Shown: piece after piece, positions 5,050 to 27,268 of the stretch | Numbering within the stretch: the stretch's first letter is position 1 | How the letters are laid out: every line of letters starts with the position of its first letter | DNA from: a virus | Taxonomy: Duplodnaviria > Caudoviricetes | Direction: 5' to 3' (one strand) | IMG/VR virus record: IMGVR_UViG_3300025534_000027 | Location: 1 to 32,031 of that record | Length of the DNA stretch: 32,031 bases | Notes under the pieces: model-generated | The model's input: only the letters and a program-made list of their open reading frames with translations | Database searches by the model: none | What the model was told of the DNA's origin: nothing | Made by a program: the position numbers and the translations under genes

Positions 5050-5261
5050 AAATGACGAAAAAATGGATTAAAGCTGCAACGATTCGCGCCGTTCGGACTG
5101 CTGCACAAGCGGCACTTGCTGCAATCGGCTCTGCAACAATGTTCGGTGAGGTGGACTGGCGAGTTGTAGGAAGCACGGCCCTGCTGGCGGCTATCGTTAG
5201 CGTCCTTATGAGCATCAAGGGGCTGCCGGAAGTCGAGAATGGCGAGGGTGACGGCGAATGA
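5046..5261 (+). CDS. Holin (r1t-type family) with Met-Lys-Met dual start
   Basis: WIKAATIRAVRTAAQAALA...VDW...SVLMSIKGLPEV signature; two TM segments; TTG-AAA-ATG start. Confidence 0.85.
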   Translation: MKMTKKWIKAATIRAVRTAAQAALAAIGSATMFGEVDWRVVGSTALLAAIVSVLMSIKGLPEVENGEGDGE

Positions 5262-5896
5262 CTCGTAACGAGTTTTTCGCCACTCTCGCCCCGCATGCGA
5301 TCCGCGCGCGTCAAGAAGGATCGCCGCTGTTTGTATCCGTCCGGCTGGCACAGAATTTGCTTGAAACCGGGGGCAAAATCCATTCGTGGAACAACCTCGG
5401 CGGTATTAAGGTCGGGTCAGGTAAGCCTAACGAGTGGTGGGATGGCAGCTATGTCAAAAAAGGCACATGGGAAGTAGTAAACGGCCAGAAAGTCGATACA
5501 ACGGCTGCATTTCGCGCGTACAAGTCGATCTATCACTTTTACCGAGATCAAGACCTGCTGTTCCAAAACAAACGCTATGAGCGCGTGAGAAACGCCAAAA
5601 CACCGGAGGAACAAGCGGAAGCGCTGCGGCTGTGCGGATACGCCACAGACCCGGAGTATGGACTGAAAATCTGCAACATCATCAGCATGTACAACCTCAA
5701 AAAATATGATCAGGAGGCGGACAACAAAATGCAGTTGAGTAATTATCAATGGCAGCGGATCGAGACCGGGGTTAAGTCCTTGCTCGACCGGAAGATTATC
5801 TCTGATCAAGGGTGGCTTGAGAAGGCCCAAAAGCGGACGCTCACGCGGGACGAGTTGGCATGGCTCACCTTTGAGCTTGTAGCAAACCCGCGTTAA
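5258..5896 (+). CDS. Endolysin, glycoside hydrolase family 73 (glucosaminidase)
   Basis: AQNLLETG catalytic Glu, NNLGGIK, FRAYKS, GYATDPEY motifs; short C-terminal putative binding domain; overlaps holin stop. Confidence 0.9.
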   Translation: MTRNEFFATLAPHAIRARQEGSPLFVSVRLAQNLLETGGKIHSWNNLGGIKVGSGKPNEWWDGSYVKKGTWEVVNGQKVDTTAAFRAYKSIYHFYRDQDLLFQNKRYERVRNAKTPEEQAEALRLCGYATDPEYGLKICNIISMYNLKKYDQEADNKMQLSNYQWQRIETGVKSLLDRKIISDQGWLEKAQKRTLTRDELAWLTFELVANPR

Positions 5897-5904
5897 TGAT
5901 GGAA

Positions 5905-5938
5905 CCCCGCTCGGCTATACGCTGGGTGGGGATTTTTT
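5905..5938 (+). terminator. Intrinsic terminator of late/lysis operon
   Basis: CCCCGCTCGGC-tatac-GCTGGGTGGGG then ATTTTTT; sits between convergent genes. Confidence 0.75.
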
Positions 5939-6136
5939 GCTTTGGGCATACACTTCCGCCCGATCCCGTCTCCACAGCGGCCGCCCCTCGAACACCGCGT
6001 CCGGCCGGGGAAAGCGCCCCCGATAGGTGGGTTTCAGCGCCCGTTGGCCAGCCAGACTGACGTTCTGCTGGGTGGTGCCGAGGAGCCGCGCAAATTCGGC
6101 AGCGCCGATGAGTTCAAGTGGTTGGTTTTCAGTCAT
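5915..6136 (-). CDS. Small helix-turn-helix protein (AlpA/excisionase-like)
   Basis: LIGAAEFARLLGTTQQNVS HTH plus FPRPD...GRPLWRR wing; ATG 6136 overlapping upstream stop. Confidence 0.7.
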   Translation of the reverse strand: MTENQPLELIGAAEFARLLGTTQQNVSLAGQRALKPTYRGRFPRPDAVFEGRPLWRRDRAEVYAQSKKSPPSV

Positions 6137-6812
6137 TGGTGTCACCCTTTCGTTCTGCTTTTTCCAGGTACGGTTTGTGGTATTGTTCCTCGAGCGCTTT
6201 TCGGTCCGCGATCGCTTCCGCAAGCGTGCGCCGTATGGGCCCCCAAATACGTTTACCCTTGACCGAGATGTGCGCCTCGAAATACACCGTACCTTTTCGT
6301 ACGCGACGATACACGCCCTTGATGCCTGTACCGCTGTCCGACCTGACCTTTTTGGTCAGTAGCGGCACCTGTACGCCGTCAACGGTGTATTTGGTGTCGA
6401 GTGCTTGTCTTGCAGCGCGAATGTGATCGTGCTTAGAACACCCGCATGTAGCTGCTCCGCCAATGCGCAAAATGGTCGCCGTAAACGGTTGGAGGTTTCC
6501 GCATCTGTGACATTTACAGAGCCATAACGCTTGCCCACGCTCGTTCGTCCCGGCACGCTCAATCACTTCGAGGTCGCCGAAGCGCTGACCGGTTAGGTCA
6601 AGGGCATTCGGTGGCGTCCGTTTTCGCAGGCAGCCGCACGACTTTTTTCTGCCGGTCTGAAGTTGGCTCTTGGTGGCGACAGTGGTTTCGCCACAGGAGC
6701 ATCGGCAGATATATGCCTTCTCTTTTCGAACTTTTTCCGGCGACTCCTCGATGACCTCGAGCTCTCCGTACTTTTGACCGGGCATGATTTGTTGTCCTCT
6801 CAATAGCACCAC
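6129..6812 (-). CDS. AP2-domain DNA-binding protein with two Cys-rich repeats (HNH-AP2 related, no evident HNH)
   Basis: Two GQ(K/R)(Y/F)G.L.VIE...C.C..CG...(S/T)CGC repeats; C-terminal SGTGIKGVY...FEAHISVKGKRIWG...EAIADRKALEEQY AP2 motif; exact start uncertain. Confidence 0.75.
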   Translation of the reverse strand: MVLLRGQQIMPGQKYGELEVIEESPEKVRKEKAYICRCSCGETTVATKSQLQTGRKKSCGCLRKRTPPNALDLTGQRFGDLEVIERAGTNERGQALWLCKCHRCGNLQPFTATILRIGGAATCGCSKHDHIRAARQALDTKYTVDGVQVPLLTKKVRSDSGTGIKGVYRRVRKGTVYFEAHISVKGKRIWGPIRRTLAEAIADRKALEEQYHKPYLEKAERKGDTND

Positions 6813-6820
6813 CTCTACAT

Positions 6821-6884
6821 GCAGGTTGAGCGGAAGCCGCCGAAGCGGCTGCGCCGGGATTCTCGGCGCTCTCCCTAGCCCTGC
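6821..6884 (-). ncRNA. Twister-sister-like ribozyme, copy 2 (variant or degenerate)
   Basis: GCAGG GCUAG GGA GA GCGCCG-AGAAUCC-CGGCGC AGCCGC-UUCG-GCGGCU UCC GCUCAA CCUGC; identical P1 and internal loop to copy 1, covarying P2, altered hairpin loop. Confidence 0.7.
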
Positions 6885-7354
6885 GTTTTTCTTCTTCCCA
6901 ACGGATCGAGAACCGATATATCAGGTTCCGATTTCGGTTCCGGTTCCGTCGCATGGTCAACATAAAATTCAATTCCTGCTGTCTGGCTGCCCACCCATCT
7001 AATCTCATAAACCCCGAAACCTTGATCGAATCCACCATATTCTCCATAATGTTCTCTTCCTATACGGTCGAACAGCCTCTGGCTATCAAGATTATCGGGA
7101 GCTGCGAAGACTCGGTCGTATTGGCCAGAAATCCACGCGATAAATGTGCTCCCGAATCCTTTGTTGCGGTATCCGTCGTAGATGTCAATCCTGTCGATGT
7201 ATGCATCCATTCCATCACTTTCATTGTCTTCTTTGCCTTTCAAAAACTCAGTAACATATGCGTAACCAACTTTTTCTCCGTTGACATACATTACATAAGT
7301 GACGGTCTCATTTCCATCGAGATAGTACCGTCGATATTCGCGGATTTTGATCAT
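6875..7354 (-). CDS. GNAT-family N-acetyltransferase
   Basis: GGAGG RBS, ATG 7354; acetyl-CoA motif A (YIDRIDIYDGYRNKGFGSTFI) and NLDSQRLFDRIG; stop TAG lies inside ribozyme copy 2. Confidence 0.8.
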   Translation of the reverse strand: MIKIREYRRYYLDGNETVTYVMYVNGEKVGYAYVTEFLKGKEDNESDGMDAYIDRIDIYDGYRNKGFGSTFIAWISGQYDRVFAAPDNLDSQRLFDRIGREHYGEYGGFDQGFGVYEIRWVGSQTAGIEFYVDHATEPEPKSEPDISVLDPLGRRKTQG

Positions 7355-7388
7355 TTTCAACGCCTCCACTTCGTGATTTCCTGCCATC

Positions 7389-7453
7389 GCAGGTTGAGCG
7401 CCGCGCCCCTTTCGGGGCGGTCCCGGCTTGCACGGGACTGGGCCTAGCCCTGC
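7389..7453 (-). ncRNA. Twister-sister self-cleaving ribozyme (three-way junction type), copy 1
   Basis: GCAGG GCUAG GCC CA GUCCCG-UGCAAGC-CGGGAC C GCCCC-GAAA-GGGGC GC GGC GCUCAA CCUGC; all stems pair; UGCAAG loop and GCUCA cleavage strand match the twister-sister consensus as recalled. Confidence 0.9.
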
Positions 7454-7502
7454 TCGTCAGTCTCGCGGCTCCCATCCCTTCGACTCGGCGAAACGTGCAT
7501 CC

Positions 7503-7519
7503 GGCCATCGTCAGGCGGG
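7503..7519 (-). repeat. 17-bp direct repeat, copy A (CCCGCCTGACGATGGCC on minus strand)
   Basis: Identical to 7829-7845; contains the TGA stop of 7511-7726. Confidence 0.85.
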
Positions 7520-7726
7520 GATGTGGATCGTGTTCCCCATGCCGTCTTCCCAGCCATTCACGTCTTCGCCGGCGTCCAGCGCTTCGACGATCCGCTGCAT
7601 GTCGTCCAGGTCGGCCGGCGTAATCGTGGCGATCACTTCGCCGTCCTTTACTACGTCAAACTCGTGCAGGTCGTGGTCGAACGGCTTTTCCTCCACCCGG
7701 TATCCTTCGCGTTCCCAAACTCTCAT
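7511..7726 (-). CDS. Small acidic hypothetical protein
   Basis: 71 aa; GGAGG RBS; first gene after promoter 7760-7788. Confidence 0.75.
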   Translation of the reverse strand: MRVWEREGYRVEEKPFDHDLHEFDVVKDGEVIATITPADLDDMQRIVEALDAGEDVNGWEDGMGNTIHIPA

Positions 7727-7759: not shown

Positions 7760-7788
7760 ATTATACCATAAAAGATTGTGCTACACAA
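7760..7788 (-). promoter_or_regulatory. Sigma-A promoter TTGTGT-N17-TATAAT with extended -10
   Basis: Minus strand TTGTGT agcacaatcttttatgg TATAAT; inverted repeat TTGTG-cta-CACAA overlaps -35. Confidence 0.75.
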
Positions 7789-7828: not shown

Positions 7829-7845
7829 GGCCATCGTCAGGCGGG
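7829..7845 (-). repeat. 17-bp direct repeat, copy B
   Basis: Identical to 7503-7519; immediately after stop of 7847-8182. Confidence 0.85.
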
Positions 7846-7846
7846 A

Positions 7847-8182
7847 TCATATACGTTTGACAAAGGCGTTTTCGATTCGTGCCAGCCGTTCCGTCAAGTT
7901 GATCGGCGCTGGCGGCTGGTAGTTTTTCAGCTCGATACATCTTTTCTCGAAGTCTTCGCGGCTCTTGATCTCGAACGATACGCCGTTGATGTTTGCGTAC
8001 AACCGACCTCCGAGCGGCCGAATCGAGGCTGTGACACCGTGCTTTTTGGCGATCAGTCGAAGTCTGTCGATGTACCATTGCATATGATTGGTCATGTTCA
8101 ATCCCTCCAATAAGAGGCTGCCGATTTTTCTCTGCCCCGGCCCGTTGATGTGCGAGATCGACGGGGTTTCAATTTGCTTCAT
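7847..8182 (-). CDS. Hypothetical protein
   Basis: 111-aa ORF overlapping upstream gene; alternative start MTNHMQ with GGAGGG RBS. Confidence 0.6.
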   Translation of the reverse strand: MKQIETPSISHINGPGQRKIGSLLLEGLNMTNHMQWYIDRLRLIAKKHGVTASIRPLGGRLYANINGVSFEIKSREDFEKRCIELKNYQPPAPINLTERLARIENAFVKRI

Positions 8183-8372
8183 AAATCAATTCCACGACTA
8201 CCTTCTTTACAACCGCCTTGGCCATTTCGCCGATGATTTCCGGGGTGTCCTTTGCGAGCTCTGGAAACATGTTGGCGATCTCGATTGCCACCCGGTCCGT
8301 GACTTCTTGGGCAACATCGGCGAGTTTACCGCCGTTTTGGATGTACGTTTTTAGAACTTCGACATTCGACAT
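8169..8372 (-). CDS. Hypothetical protein
   Basis: 67 aa; GGAGGGTG RBS; first gene after promoter 8407-8435. Confidence 0.7.
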   Translation of the reverse strand: MSNVEVLKTYIQNGGKLADVAQEVTDRVAIEIANMFPELAKDTPEIIGEMAKAVVKKVVVELIYEAN

Positions 8373-8406: not shown

Positions 8407-8481
8407 ATTATACAGCATTTTAAATGCTTTGTAAATAGTTTTTTTGGGGCAGTTGCAGAAAAATTTTAAATGCCGTAAAAT
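8407..8481. promoter_or_regulatory. Divergent sigma-A promoters with shared AAATGC operator repeats
   Basis: Leftward TTTACA-N17-TATAAT (8435 to 8407) with palindrome AGCATTT-T-AAATGCT in spacer; rightward TTGCAG-N17-TAAAAT (8453-8481) with two more AAATGC. Confidence 0.7.
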
Positions 8482-8503: not shown

Positions 8504-8671
8504 ATGGCAGGCAGACCGCCGAAACCGGCATCCGAGAAAAAGATCCGCGAGGCTGTTTATTTCGAGCCGCATCTGCTGGAATGGCTGCGCGATCTGGCGG
8601 AGAGGGAAAAGGTGACAGTCAGCGTCGTCGTAAATCGACTGGTCGAAAAAGCAAAGGAGGCGCGGGCGTGA
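8504..8671 (+). CDS. Ribbon-helix-helix (CopG/Arc-like) regulator
   Basis: MAGRPPK...EAVYFEPHLLEWLRDLAEREKVTVSVVVNRLVEK; GGGGTGA RBS. Confidence 0.8.
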   Translation: MAGRPPKPASEKKIREAVYFEPHLLEWLRDLAEREKVTVSVVVNRLVEKAKEARA

Positions 8672-8805: not shown

Positions 8806-8851
8806 TATGTCTTGGTGCATAATAGGCGATCCTTTTATTCACCAAGACATA
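8806..8851. other. Candidate attP site of the serine integrase
   Basis: 46-bp imperfect palindrome TATGTCTTGGTG-cATAAtAGGc-GA-tCCTtTTATt-CACCAAGACATA abutting the integrase stop; centre GA at 8828-8829. Confidence 0.7.
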
Positions 8852-8852
8852 A

Positions 8853-10289
8853 TTATGCTTTCCATGTAATCTCCACTAATTTACCATCACGAACTTGTAT
8901 TTCCTCAATTAATCCCCGAATAGCGTTTTTTGCTGCAAGGCGATCAATTCCGTTTAACGTTGGCAAAAACTCCAATGCTTTTTTCTGAATGACTGATGAA
9001 TCTTTGCTTTGTGATTCGAGCTCCCGCATTTTCCGCTCGATTTCTCGGCGTTCTGTTTCGATTCGTTCCCGCGCTGCTTTAAGATCGTCCGCCCCAATAA
9101 GGTCCATTTCATAAGCTTCGATCTGTTTCTGCATACGTTTGTTTATTCTCTCAAGGCTCTTTTGCAAATCCTTTATTTCATCATCAACAGATGGTGTGAC
9201 CGTTTTGATTCGAAGCTCTTTCGTTGACATTTGGGCCACATGCTCGATTTCTTTAATAATCGTCGATTCCAGATCATCACGGTGGATGGCGTGATGCTTG
9301 CACCCATAACCGAGTACATATGACGAGCAAATATAACGGTAATAAGCATAATTCTTTGTGCCTCTATGATATCGTGCTGTGCTGCCCTTCATACTTCGTC
9401 CGCAATGACCGCATTTTATGATTCCGGTTAACAGGTATGTTTCATTGTCAGCGTGTCTAAAAGCTTTTGCGCGAGAACGCATAATCTCTTGTACGGCATC
9501 AAAGCGCTCTGGCGTTATAATTGCTGGGTGATTATCTTCTTTAATGATCCATTCGCGCCTATCTCGAATGACTGTTTTTCCGCTTCTGTTTTGACGCTTA
9601 TTATAAACTAGTCTTCCGGCTACCGTATCATTTTGGATTATGCGTTTAACACTCACTTGATCCCAGGGTTTTCCTTGCTTTGTTTTTGATCCGCGTTCGT
9701 TCAATATTTGAGCAATCTTCCGATATCCGTTACCCTGTTCGGCAAGATCGAACATCATGCGTACAAATTGCGCTTCATCCTCATTTATCACATATTCGGC
9801 GTCAACTACGTCATAACCATAGCACGGCTTTGTCAATGCCTTATTTGTGTTTCGTGCGAGGGAGAGCATATTTTCCTTGACGCGCTCACTAATTCTTTCC
9901 CGCTCAAATTCGGCAAACGTACCGAGTAATTGAAGTGTCATTCGACCGACCGCGGTCGATGTATCAAAATTCTCGGAAGCTGAAACATAGTTACAATCAT
10001 GATCTTGTAAGAATCGAATCGTCTGCAATAAATCAAGTAAGTTACGGCTAAATCTATCCAATTTGGTTGTTAAAATGATCCGTACTTTATTTTGCTTTAC
10101 TTCGTTAAATAATTGTTGGATTGCTGGCCGATTCATGTCTTTTGCTGAATAACCATCATCCACGAAAAATGTAGGTTGCTCCCAACCCATAGCGCGACAA
10201 TAGGATGTAAGCCGCTCTCTCTGTTCTGCTAAAGAATTACCTTTATCCGCTTGATCGTCCGTAGAAACCCTGATATATGCGGCAATCAT
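8853..10289 (-). CDS. int: Large serine recombinase (integrase)
   Basis: AAYIRVSTDDQ catalytic Ser, DDGYSAKDMNRP, KLDRFSRN, recombinase domain, zinc ribbon (CGHCG...YICS...GC) and coiled coil; start overlaps cI stop (TAATG). Confidence 0.97.
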   Translation of the reverse strand: MIAAYIRVSTDDQADKGNSLAEQRERLTSYCRAMGWEQPTFFVDDGYSAKDMNRPAIQQLFNEVKQNKVRIILTTKLDRFSRNLLDLLQTIRFLQDHDCNYVSASENFDTSTAVGRMTLQLLGTFAEFERERISERVKENMLSLARNTNKALTKPCYGYDVVDAEYVINEDEAQFVRMMFDLAEQGNGYRKIAQILNERGSKTKQGKPWDQVSVKRIIQNDTVAGRLVYNKRQNRSGKTVIRDRREWIIKEDNHPAIITPERFDAVQEIMRSRAKAFRHADNETYLLTGIIKCGHCGRSMKGSTARYHRGTKNYAYYRYICSSYVLGYGCKHHAIHRDDLESTIIKEIEHVAQMSTKELRIKTVTPSVDDEIKDLQKSLERINKRMQKQIEAYEMDLIGADDLKAARERIETERREIERKMRELESQSKDSSVIQKKALEFLPTLNGIDRLAAKNAIRGLIEEIQVRDGKLVEITWKA

Positions 10290-11974: not shown

Positions 11975-12484
11975 ATGAAAAAGTACGTACTCACGGAAGA
12001 GACGAAAGAGTGGAATGGTGCCACCCTCTACCGAATCAGGGCCGTCCGTGACATCCCGGAAATCGGTGTGAAAGCCGGTGACCTCGGCGGCTGGATCGCC
12101 AGCGAGAAAAACCTTGACCAGGACGGCAACGCATGGGTGTCCGGCGACGCATGGGTGTACGGCAATGCATGGGTGTACGGCGACGCTCGGGTGTCCGGCG
12201 ACGCATGGGTGTACGGCAACGCTCGGGTGTACGGCGACGCCGTCATCGACTCGTCCGAAAAGATTTTTTGGGCATCATCGGTCGGATCGGAACGCGACAC
12301 ACTGACCGCATACCTGACTCAAGATGGCGACATCGAAGTCACACGCGGATGCTTCCGCGGGACTTTGGACGAGTTTGAAAAAGCCGTGCGAAGCCGACAC
12401 AGTGGGACACGATACGAAGAAGAATATTTAGGGCTGATCGAGTTTATCCGCCTGCGGTTTCGTGATGTGGTGAAGCCGAAATGA
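11975..12484 (+). CDS. Hexapeptide-repeat (left-handed beta-helix-like) phage protein
   Basis: LYRIRA...GDLGGWI..E.NL motif; G(N/D)A(W/R)V(S/Y) repeats; RGCFRGTLDEF C-terminus. Confidence 0.8.
   Translation: MKKYVLTEETKEWNGATLYRIRAVRDIPEIGVKAGDLGGWIASEKNLDQDGNAWVSGDAWVYGNAWVYGDARVSGDAWVYGNARVYGDAVIDSSEKIFWASSVGSERDTLTAYLTQDGDIEVTRGCFRGTLDEFEKAVRSRHSGTRYEEEYLGLIEFIRLRFRDVVKPK
12125..12241 (+). repeat. 18-bp tandem repeat array (about 6.5 units) encoding hexapeptides
   Basis: GGC-(A/G)A(C/T)-GC(A/T)-(T/C)GG-GTG-T(A/C)C units. Confidence 0.9.
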
Positions 12485-26746: not shown

Positions 26747-27268
26747 GTGGCGAGAAAAATGGAGCAGCAGCCAAATGGATATTGGACAATAAGCACGCAA
26801 GGAGTAACCGTGCGCGACACCATCCCAGGAATGGGAAAAGACGCACCAAAGGTTGTAAACGAACAAGGCGGCTCACAATCGCATTTGCCATATCGTTTTG
26901 ACTTGATCGACCCACAAGCGATTTTTGCGCTTGCAGAGGTGCTTTATCAAGGATCGGAAAGACACGGAGAAGACAACTGGCGCAAGATACCGATCAATGA
27001 CCATTTAAACCACGCACTCGCGCATATCTACGCATACATGGCCGGGGACACACAGGACGATCACCTGAGCCATGCGCTTTGTAGGATGATGTTTGCGGTG
27101 GCGCTGGAAAAGCGCGATGTAGGAAATAAGGAATGTGAACCTAAGGATGAGATGAGACAAGGTGAATGGGTCAACATCACAACCAAGTCTGATTTGGAAG
27201 AAGGATTCTTCGTACAAAAGAATGATGTTACAGGTGAGATTCGAAAACTGATAATTCATAAGCCGTGA
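26747..27268 (+). CDS. dATP/dGTP diphosphohydrolase-domain (DUF5664-like) protein
   Basis: RFDLID...LAEVLYQGSERHGEDNWRK...HALAHI...DHLSHALCRMMF. Confidence 0.75.
   Translation: MARKMEQQPNGYWTISTQGVTVRDTIPGMGKDAPKVVNEQGGSQSHLPYRFDLIDPQAIFALAEVLYQGSERHGEDNWRKIPINDHLNHALAHIYAYMAGDTQDDHLSHALCRMMFAVALEKRDVGNKECEPKDEMRQGEWVNITTKSDLEEGFFVQKNDVTGEIRKLIIHKP

Follow-up and report, generated by a model that had tools for sequence, protein, structure and literature searches.

Twister-sister ribozyme elements at the points of gene exchange in an accessory array of a temperate phage

The window, i.e., the whole stretch of DNA that was analysed, is a 32,031-nt contig of a temperate phage and represents a partial genome. 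A scan of 27 of its proteins revealed a lysin (5258-5896), a serine integrase (8853-10289), a CI-like repressor, a terminase and an SPP1-type portal. The host is probably a member of the Bacillota, since the terminase matches those of Clostridium phages at 45% and elements of the type named B below occur in assemblies of Tissierellia, Butyrivibrio and Halanaerobiales. Between the lysin and the integrase lies a leftward run of short accessory genes with a near-consensus promoter at its head (Table 1). Two ribozyme elements, A and B, the gene of a GNAT acetyltransferase and the rest of the array are all located on the minus strand; in the RNA, the GNAT gene is preceded by A and followed by B. 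This confirms the preliminary description of the locus, in which the gene was placed between two elements of the same orientation.

Table 1. Features of the accessory gene array, listed from its promoter to its end
Feature	Position	Strand	Basis or remark
Putative sigma-70-type promoter, array head	8407..8435	-	11/12 consensus matches
67-aa ORF, first array gene	8169..8372	-	weak PHROG match only
82-aa ORF	7847..8095	-	homologue in sister array L032
Relic 1: type I hammerhead truncated to its 5' half	7829..7845	-	identical 17 nt open complete hammerheads in L003, L022
Extended -10 promoter-like element preceding the 71-aa gene	7760..7768	-	sequence reading
71-aa ORF	7511..7726	-	TGA stop = CUGA of hammerhead core; orthologues in L050, L093
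Relic 2: type I hammerhead truncated to its 5' half	7503..7519	-	L050 has a complete hammerhead here
3' stub (11 codons + stop) of deleted 109/110-aa cassette gene	7457..7492	-	intact in L050, L045, L094
Element A, three-way twister-sister ribozyme	7389..7453	-	Rfam RF02681
Predicted post-cleavage 5' hairpin of GNAT RNA	7380..7393	-	pair probability about 0.99
GNAT acetyltransferase, 159 aa	6875..7354	-	PF00583; last two codons + stop from 5' arm of B
Element B, twister-sister variant	6821..6884	-	arms, fold, covariation
568-nt insertion unit between identical 12-nt 3' arms	6821..7388	-	joint in run X4; L050 homology from 6832
218-aa protein, HNH-endonuclease PHROG, next array gene	6129..6785	-	phrog_374, E 7e-36; L050 orthologue
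73-aa DNA-binding protein, array end	5915..6136	-	phrog_597

Several further features were recorded in the window. A small ribbon-helix-helix/Arc-like gene (8504-8671) diverges from the promoter of the array and possibly encodes an array repressor; the end of the integrase gene contains an inverted repeat of 21 bp (8806-8851). Seven 18-nt tandem repeats (12105-12266) are contained in the gene of a 169-aa protein with YdcK beta-solenoid matches. Four 25-nt repeats (15195-15297), likely an iteron origin, were found in a 310-aa replication gene that precedes an IstB/DnaC-like gene. A C5 cytosine methylase is encoded at 18799-19977 and a protein with an N-terminal dATP/dGTP diphosphohydrolase domain at 26747-27268. 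The phage also has a DUF3799 nuclease region.

The 218-aa protein of the HNH-endonuclease PHROG gave no Pfam match, and among the other cassette genes of such arrays Pfam matches were obtained for three of the 24 proteins scanned, namely ArdA, RadC and a STIV B116-like protein. The promoter-like element before the 71-aa gene belongs to a region 94% identical in the sister phage L050 and is absent from the promoter scan output. A 17-nt repeat of the array, considered as an att site or a new RNA, turned out to be the 5' half of a hammerhead ribozyme. One copy (relic 2) provides the stop codon of the 71-aa gene, and its fusion to the remnant of the 109-aa gene, i.e., the final 11 codons, marks a deletion scar; loose ends at 7492 in the sequencing runs X15 and X4 run on into the 109/110-aa gene. 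The short upstream frame (MHVSPS...QG) that had been noted before does exist, but it is an out-of-frame reading of the stub of this deleted gene and not a gene of its own.

The GNAT protein matched PF00583 at 23.6 bits (cut-off 20.7) and its glycine motif for acetyl-CoA binding includes G66 and G68, both invariant in 72 sequences. Its start is probably at 7354, giving 159 aa, because a Shine-Dalgarno sequence is present at 7367-7363 and the homologues begin there; the start at 7387 was rejected, as it lies within the hairpin, has no ribosome site and does not agree with the homologues. The structure model (pLDDT 88.5) gave GNATs as the top-ranked fold matches, with TM of about 0.4-0.5, and this fold search did not narrow the substrate. 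The search for relatives yielded 152 sequences at E<=0.001; fusions with LPD23, LPD3, MuF, MuF_C, PBECR3 or ART-PolyVal were found among the homologues, six of the 16 scanned carrying such domains. These are traits of the GNATs of polyvalent proteins, for which Iyer et al. (2017, PMC5512222) distinguish two families, describe solo forms in Firmicutes and predict protein substrates. The GNAT of the window is of a family represented among polyvalent proteins and differs from the fused homologues in being a solo protein of 159 aa with a 40-residue C-terminal extension. Its most likely target is a host protein, which would be acetylated during lysogeny or at an early stage of infection. A homologue of a 92-aa gene that occupies the GNAT slot in L050 directly follows GNAT relatives in three loci devoid of these ribozymes (L071:1794-2033, L074:1805-1990, L076:1728-1925; tblastn E 1e-20 to 5e-9), and it is possible that the two genes form a functional, not obligate, pair.

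Element A was recognised by RF02681 at 61.7 bits, compared with a gathering score of 34, and was the sole Rfam match in the window; weak hits to mir-1003, malK-III and sR4 were far under their thresholds and are due to chance. Element B gave no Rfam match even at E<=10 and thus falls below the RF02681 threshold. A sister element of the same subtype in L010 passes it at 37.8 bits, which is the reason why B was filed as a variant working like the twister-sister family. The two elements possess an identical 11-nt 5' arm and an identical 12-nt 3' arm and both fold as P1-L1-P2-P4-P5 (z -2.25 and -2.30). A model built without any G13-C35 member gave B 53.4 bits, to which the shared arms contribute part. 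A strict descriptor, derived from these very elements, found two matches in the window and none in 200 simulated windows. Intrinsic termination was considered as another role of A and B and rejected, neither being among the six terminator-like sites predicted.

The elements differ in P2, in the terminal loop and in the orientation of one tertiary pair: A has P2 GCC/GGC, loop UGCAAGC and pair C13-G35, and B has P2 GGA/UCC, loop AGAAUCC and pair G13-C35. The residues G5, C6, A8, G9, G59, C60, U61, C62 and A63 are retained in B, including all the L1 residues (G5, C6, A8, G59, U61, A63) to which PMC5660989 assigns a need for cleavage; U7 is tolerated in the mutants of that study. The loop of B departs from the SL4 consensus by C35 and A30.U34, while G29, G31, A33 and C37 are kept. 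Since the stems and the flipped tertiary pair are compensated, and since B scores 53.4 bits in a model from which its own type was left out, it is a compensated variant and not a decayed copy. It is predicted, from its sequence and fold, to be an active twister-sister subtype with a flipped tertiary pair.

A pattern made from P2 and the loop of B found 14 matches in 12 viral loci, and for 11 of the 14 the closed fold was the minimum-energy structure with flanks included. The same pattern gave eight loci in genome contigs, four of which (L064, L065, L067, L068) passed neither the descriptor nor the model and were discarded as chance matches. Wider patterns led to 52 distinct cores, and a later search that gave 118 loci, with 49 cores passing the structure filter, added 20 more. 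In the alignment of 40 three-way elements 95.3% of the cells are paired, and changes on both sides were seen for 13 of 15 pairs; none of 500 shuffles reached this value, and slid controls gave 31-46%. The aligned sequences are related, and P5 was omitted from the alignment owing to its different register between the types. The catalytic-loop bases are invariant in 40/40 elements, an invariance partly imposed by the search patterns.

In the three-way crystal structure a Watson-Crick G27-C14 pair connects the terminal loop to the junction (Zheng et al., PMC5660989). The equivalent T2 pair (13-35) is of Watson-Crick type in 36 of 43 three-way cores (C-G in 17, G-C in 18 and A-U in one) and in 17 of the 20 further cores, the exceptions being eight cores with GUU in P2, one G.U and one C.C. 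When only the cores chosen without a loop pattern were taken, the pair was kept in 18 of 25, and the other seven were of the GUU type. Many elements were found by arm or loop patterns and are related, thus these counts do not represent independent events. The GUU cores constitute a third twister-sister subtype with P2 GUU/AAC and loops UGAAAUU or GGAAGUU (L004/L058, L034, L047, L110), whose arrays hold up to five elements. As the 13-35 pair is not formed in them, their U35 may use another contact. Within one contig, core types that differ have the same P1 arms in L010, L061 and L180, and L066 is a counter-example; this suggests that arms are homogenised within an array. A group I intron match was observed near arrays (L001:453-796, L007:3323-3666), and a single CRISPR-DR2-like repeat (L004:4423-4452) within a ribozyme array.

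The cleavage sites are predicted at 7396|7395 in A, by homology to the site described in PMC5660989, and at 6828|6827 in B. Cleavage at both would give a product of 568 nt, close to the fragment of about 570 nt anticipated in the preliminary description, and would take place 41 and 42 nt ahead of the next start codons, i.e., just before the next ribosome site, as had also been proposed. The GNAT stop TAG (6877-6875) is the UAG in the GCUAG loop strand of B, so that the gene ends, as reported earlier, in the 5' strand of the element. This junction layout recurs. In a set of 61 elements, which includes some duplicates, 15 have the UAG of GCUAG as the stop of the gene upstream; in 27 this stop is located within 12 nt of P1, in four it is further off, and no gene was called upstream of the remaining 15. 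The distance from the cut to the next start codon ranges from 23 to 72 nt with a mode of 41 in the 50 elements followed by a called gene.

The P1 strand that would be freed by cleavage can form a new hairpin with its downstream flank, beginning about two unpaired bases after the cut. A hairpin of at least 4 bp is present in 38 of 52 cores, compared with a mean of 12.2 and a maximum of 22 for shuffled sequences. It covaries with P1: for the other P1 types, pairing with the flank of the same element is possible in 11 of 16 cases and pairing with a foreign flank in 87 of 576. The complete hammerheads are arranged likewise. In the 568-nt product the 5' strand is predicted to be in the local hairpin with P of about 0.99, compared with P 0.005 for end-to-end closure. 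Secondary-structure prediction for the uncut RNA with flanks gave the active P1 a probability of only 0.02 in A and 0.18 in B, as this hairpin is already a competitor of P1 prior to cleavage. This speaks against simple constitutive cleavage; the reaction would have to be co-transcriptional or stabilised by tertiary contacts, and may be partial. Two metatranscriptome runs yielded five contigs and one contig, respectively, over parts of the GNAT and 71-aa genes; at their depth of 2-7, and from libraries that may contain DNA, they showed no back-joint and no listed piece across a cut site.

Gene exchange at the ribozymes is documented by alleles. Genes 97-99% identical to the GNAT gene were found in L092, L093, L094 and L095 in other surroundings; in all, the near-identical genes are preceded by four different neighbours and followed by two types of ribozyme. 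The gene in front is the intact 109-aa gene, a 76-aa gene, or one of 146 aa accompanied by a broken element; behind there is core B, or another core and then other DNA. In L092 the GNAT gene follows an element without P4, which scored 28.4 bits. Identity to the window stops at 7454 (L093), 7411 or 6871 (L094), positions that lie within a ribozyme or at its boundary. Both the 71-aa gene (94%) and the HNH-family gene (88%) are present in the sister phage L050, where a complete hammerhead, the 109-aa gene and the unrelated 92-aa gene stand between them; homology resumes at 6832, in the 3' arm of B. In L041 a 218-aa gene fills the GNAT slot. The comparison of related phages proposed earlier has thus revealed different cargo between ribozymes, and the idea that the shared arms act as points of gene swapping is borne out by these alleles.

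Four sequencing runs were examined, out of 24 listed. In the DNA run X4 an empty allele was found, whose joint from 6820 to 7389 leaves out precisely 568 nt, 12 letters at the joint being ambiguous; the joint was seen in one contig with a 30-nt side. Depth over A was about 10-fold or more that over GNAT in both DNA runs, and X2 contained several distinct loose ends at 7453-7455; the other joints of X2, with sides of 22-42 nt, were left unused. Among 39 elements with shared arms 13 of 741 pairs were informative, seven switching at the 5' arm and six at the 3' arm; these pairs span few gene families and are not independent. Gain or loss of units is seen also in the four-way lineage, where genes adjacent in L021 are separated in L015 by two additional gene-ribozyme units. 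None of the annotated phages matches the GNAT cassette. Within 1.5 kb of distant viral GNAT relatives neither the hammerhead descriptor nor model R1 found a ribozyme (0/21 loci each), and Rfam found none in 20, a weak result because Rfam also missed a complete hammerhead in L003; six distant metagenome loci were likewise negative. The absence of such an element from the 21 loci indicates that the gene does not need ribozymes.

The explanation that we judge rather probable is that the ribozymes are junctions with two jobs, transcript cutting and DNA recombination, in an accessory array slot. At the RNA level, each ribozyme would cut the polycistronic transcript at C|A, leaving a downstream piece with a 5'-OH whose freed P1 strand refolds into the 5' hairpin. 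Hairpins near the 5' end are known to stabilise mRNA. Since RNase J1 attacks 5'-OH ends, and rapidly degrades the 5'-OH RNA that results from glmS cleavage (PMC3997798), the hairpin may be read as serving both product release and protection of the end from 5' exonuclease. The Shine-Dalgarno sequence would be presented about 40 nt further on, so that GNAT would be made from a linear 568-nt mRNA, and the ribozyme 5' arm would often provide the stop codon of the gene upstream. At the DNA level, the identical 11-12-nt arms and the similar cores would be sites at which genes are joined, swapped or deleted; the pattern of such events is seen in the alleles, and recombination is its putative mechanism. 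Upstream gene, ribozyme core and downstream gene could thus reassort independently. The persistence of broken ribozymes, in L092 without P4 and as the two hammerhead relics of the window, counts against this explanation.

The same broken copies would be expected if the ribozymes were mainly selfish or neutral repeats that collect breakpoints as the sole shared sequence, their cleavage being tolerated and damped by the hairpin. The GNAT relatives that manage without ribozymes and the hairpin that outcompetes P1 in uncut RNA are also in line with this view, which nevertheless appears unlikely to us in the light of the covarying stems and tertiary pair, the tight spacing to the next start codon and the catalytic-loop bases, invariant in all 40 elements, if partly by the choice of search patterns. 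Alternatively, cleavage could be a turn-off as in glmS, in which the 5'-OH and the loss of upstream protection hasten decay and potentially harmful cargo is expressed in a short burst only. The rapid attack of RNase J1 on the glmS product fits this, as do the conflict-type array genes ArdA and RadC (two of the 24 proteins scanned, the third with a match being STIV B116-like) and the polyvalent-type GNAT. The covarying 5' hairpin about 2 nt from the cut is, on the contrary, what would be expected of protection, and a turn-off seems quite improbable to us.

The preliminary description had suggested circularisation by RtcB. In retrozymes and viroid-like circular RNAs the ends of the monomer are able to close again. 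A doubly cut RNA closed by the ribozyme or by RtcB, with cassettes moving via an RNA intermediate, would account for a 568-nt DNA unit of the size of the cut RNA that ends in the arm holding the cut site, and the identical P1 of A and B means that the ends could pair. Their pairing is however disfavoured by the local hairpin (P 0.005 against about 0.99), no reverse transcriptase was found among the 27 window proteins scanned, and circles, when looked for in tandem hammerheads, were undetected (PMC3088659). The 5'-arm switches (seven pairs; L094 at 6871, L093 at 7454) are not explained by an RNA unit. Switches at both arms point to DNA recombination and not to movement of cut RNA alone, and strict mobility as an RNA unit was rejected in view of those at the 5' arm. 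We regard closure of the RNA as very improbable, and likewise the idea that the cassettes travel as RNA circles.

Returning to the two-job junction, it is tempting to speculate further that the array is an integrase-free counterpart of the integron. The ribozymes would then be standard connectors under selection, with arms kept identical throughout an array despite diverged cores to allow gene exchange. Each connector would supply a newly acquired gene with its stop codon, the cut, protection of the 5' end and a ribosome site, and diversification of the cores, i.e., the flipped tertiary pair and the three P2 types, might limit wholesale deletion between copies while activity is kept. Outside the arm-selected set this extension agrees with the shared P1 arms in L010, L061 and L180, not with L066, and it must be considered tentative and on balance doubtful.

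The locus constitutes a natural allelic series, in which the same gene occurs with different ribozymes, with dead ribozymes and as an empty site, and together with the covarying 5' hairpin it offers a way to test what such ribozymes are for. Subtype B and the GUU-P2 subtype widen a small ribozyme class; as both are mostly missed by Rfam, twister-sisters are undercounted. The flipped pair gives natural covariation support to a tertiary contact hitherto known from a single crystal structure. In a search of mostly open-access literature no published account was found of subtype B, of recombination at ribozyme arms or of a post-cut hairpin, and B-type sequences may already be within the alignments of Weinberg et al. 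2015.

Compared with the known twister-sister ribozymes (RF02681; PDB 5T5A, three-way, and 5Y87, four-way; PMC5660989, PMC11620745), the elements have the same L1 catalytic loop and P1/P2/P4/P5 stems, the G29-C37 closing pair, G31, A33 and the cut site at C|A. A is an ordinary member of the family, whereas B is distinguished by P2 GGA/UCC, by A30.U34 in place of U30.A34 and by C35, compensated by G13, in place of the G35 described as 'highly conserved'.

In integron arrays unrelated short genes are separated by folded repeats and are gained or lost as units behind one promoter. The phage array shares each of these traits. It differs in that the repeat is a transcribed ribozyme, that the switches occur at both arms and inside P5 and not at one fixed crossover, and that the recombinase next to the array is a serine integrase and not, as in integrons, a tyrosine integrase, which was absent from the 27 proteins scanned of this partial genome.

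A close precedent is that of the tandem hammerheads of Perreault et al. (2011, PMC3088659), owing to which the layout of ribozymes flanking single genes is already known and the earlier designation of the locus as an undescribed system was too strong. There, hammerheads flank single prophage genes or short blocks of variable identity, single-gene mRNAs were proposed, ardA is nearby, and cleavage of arrays laid out in this way was demonstrated both in vitro and in E. coli. In a later review (2019, PMC6765202) the idea that polycistronic RNA is processed is given as a suggestion, and why ribozymes cluster among small genes is treated as an open question. The phage locus likewise has at least two same-strand ribozymes flanking single prophage genes of non-constant identity, and its sister arrays have hammerheads in the same slots. 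Neither recombination at the ribozymes nor a post-cut hairpin is proposed in the discussion of Perreault et al.; in contrast to their arrays, the junctions described herein are twister-sisters of several subtypes, and comparison of the alleles places the gene swaps at the ribozyme arms.
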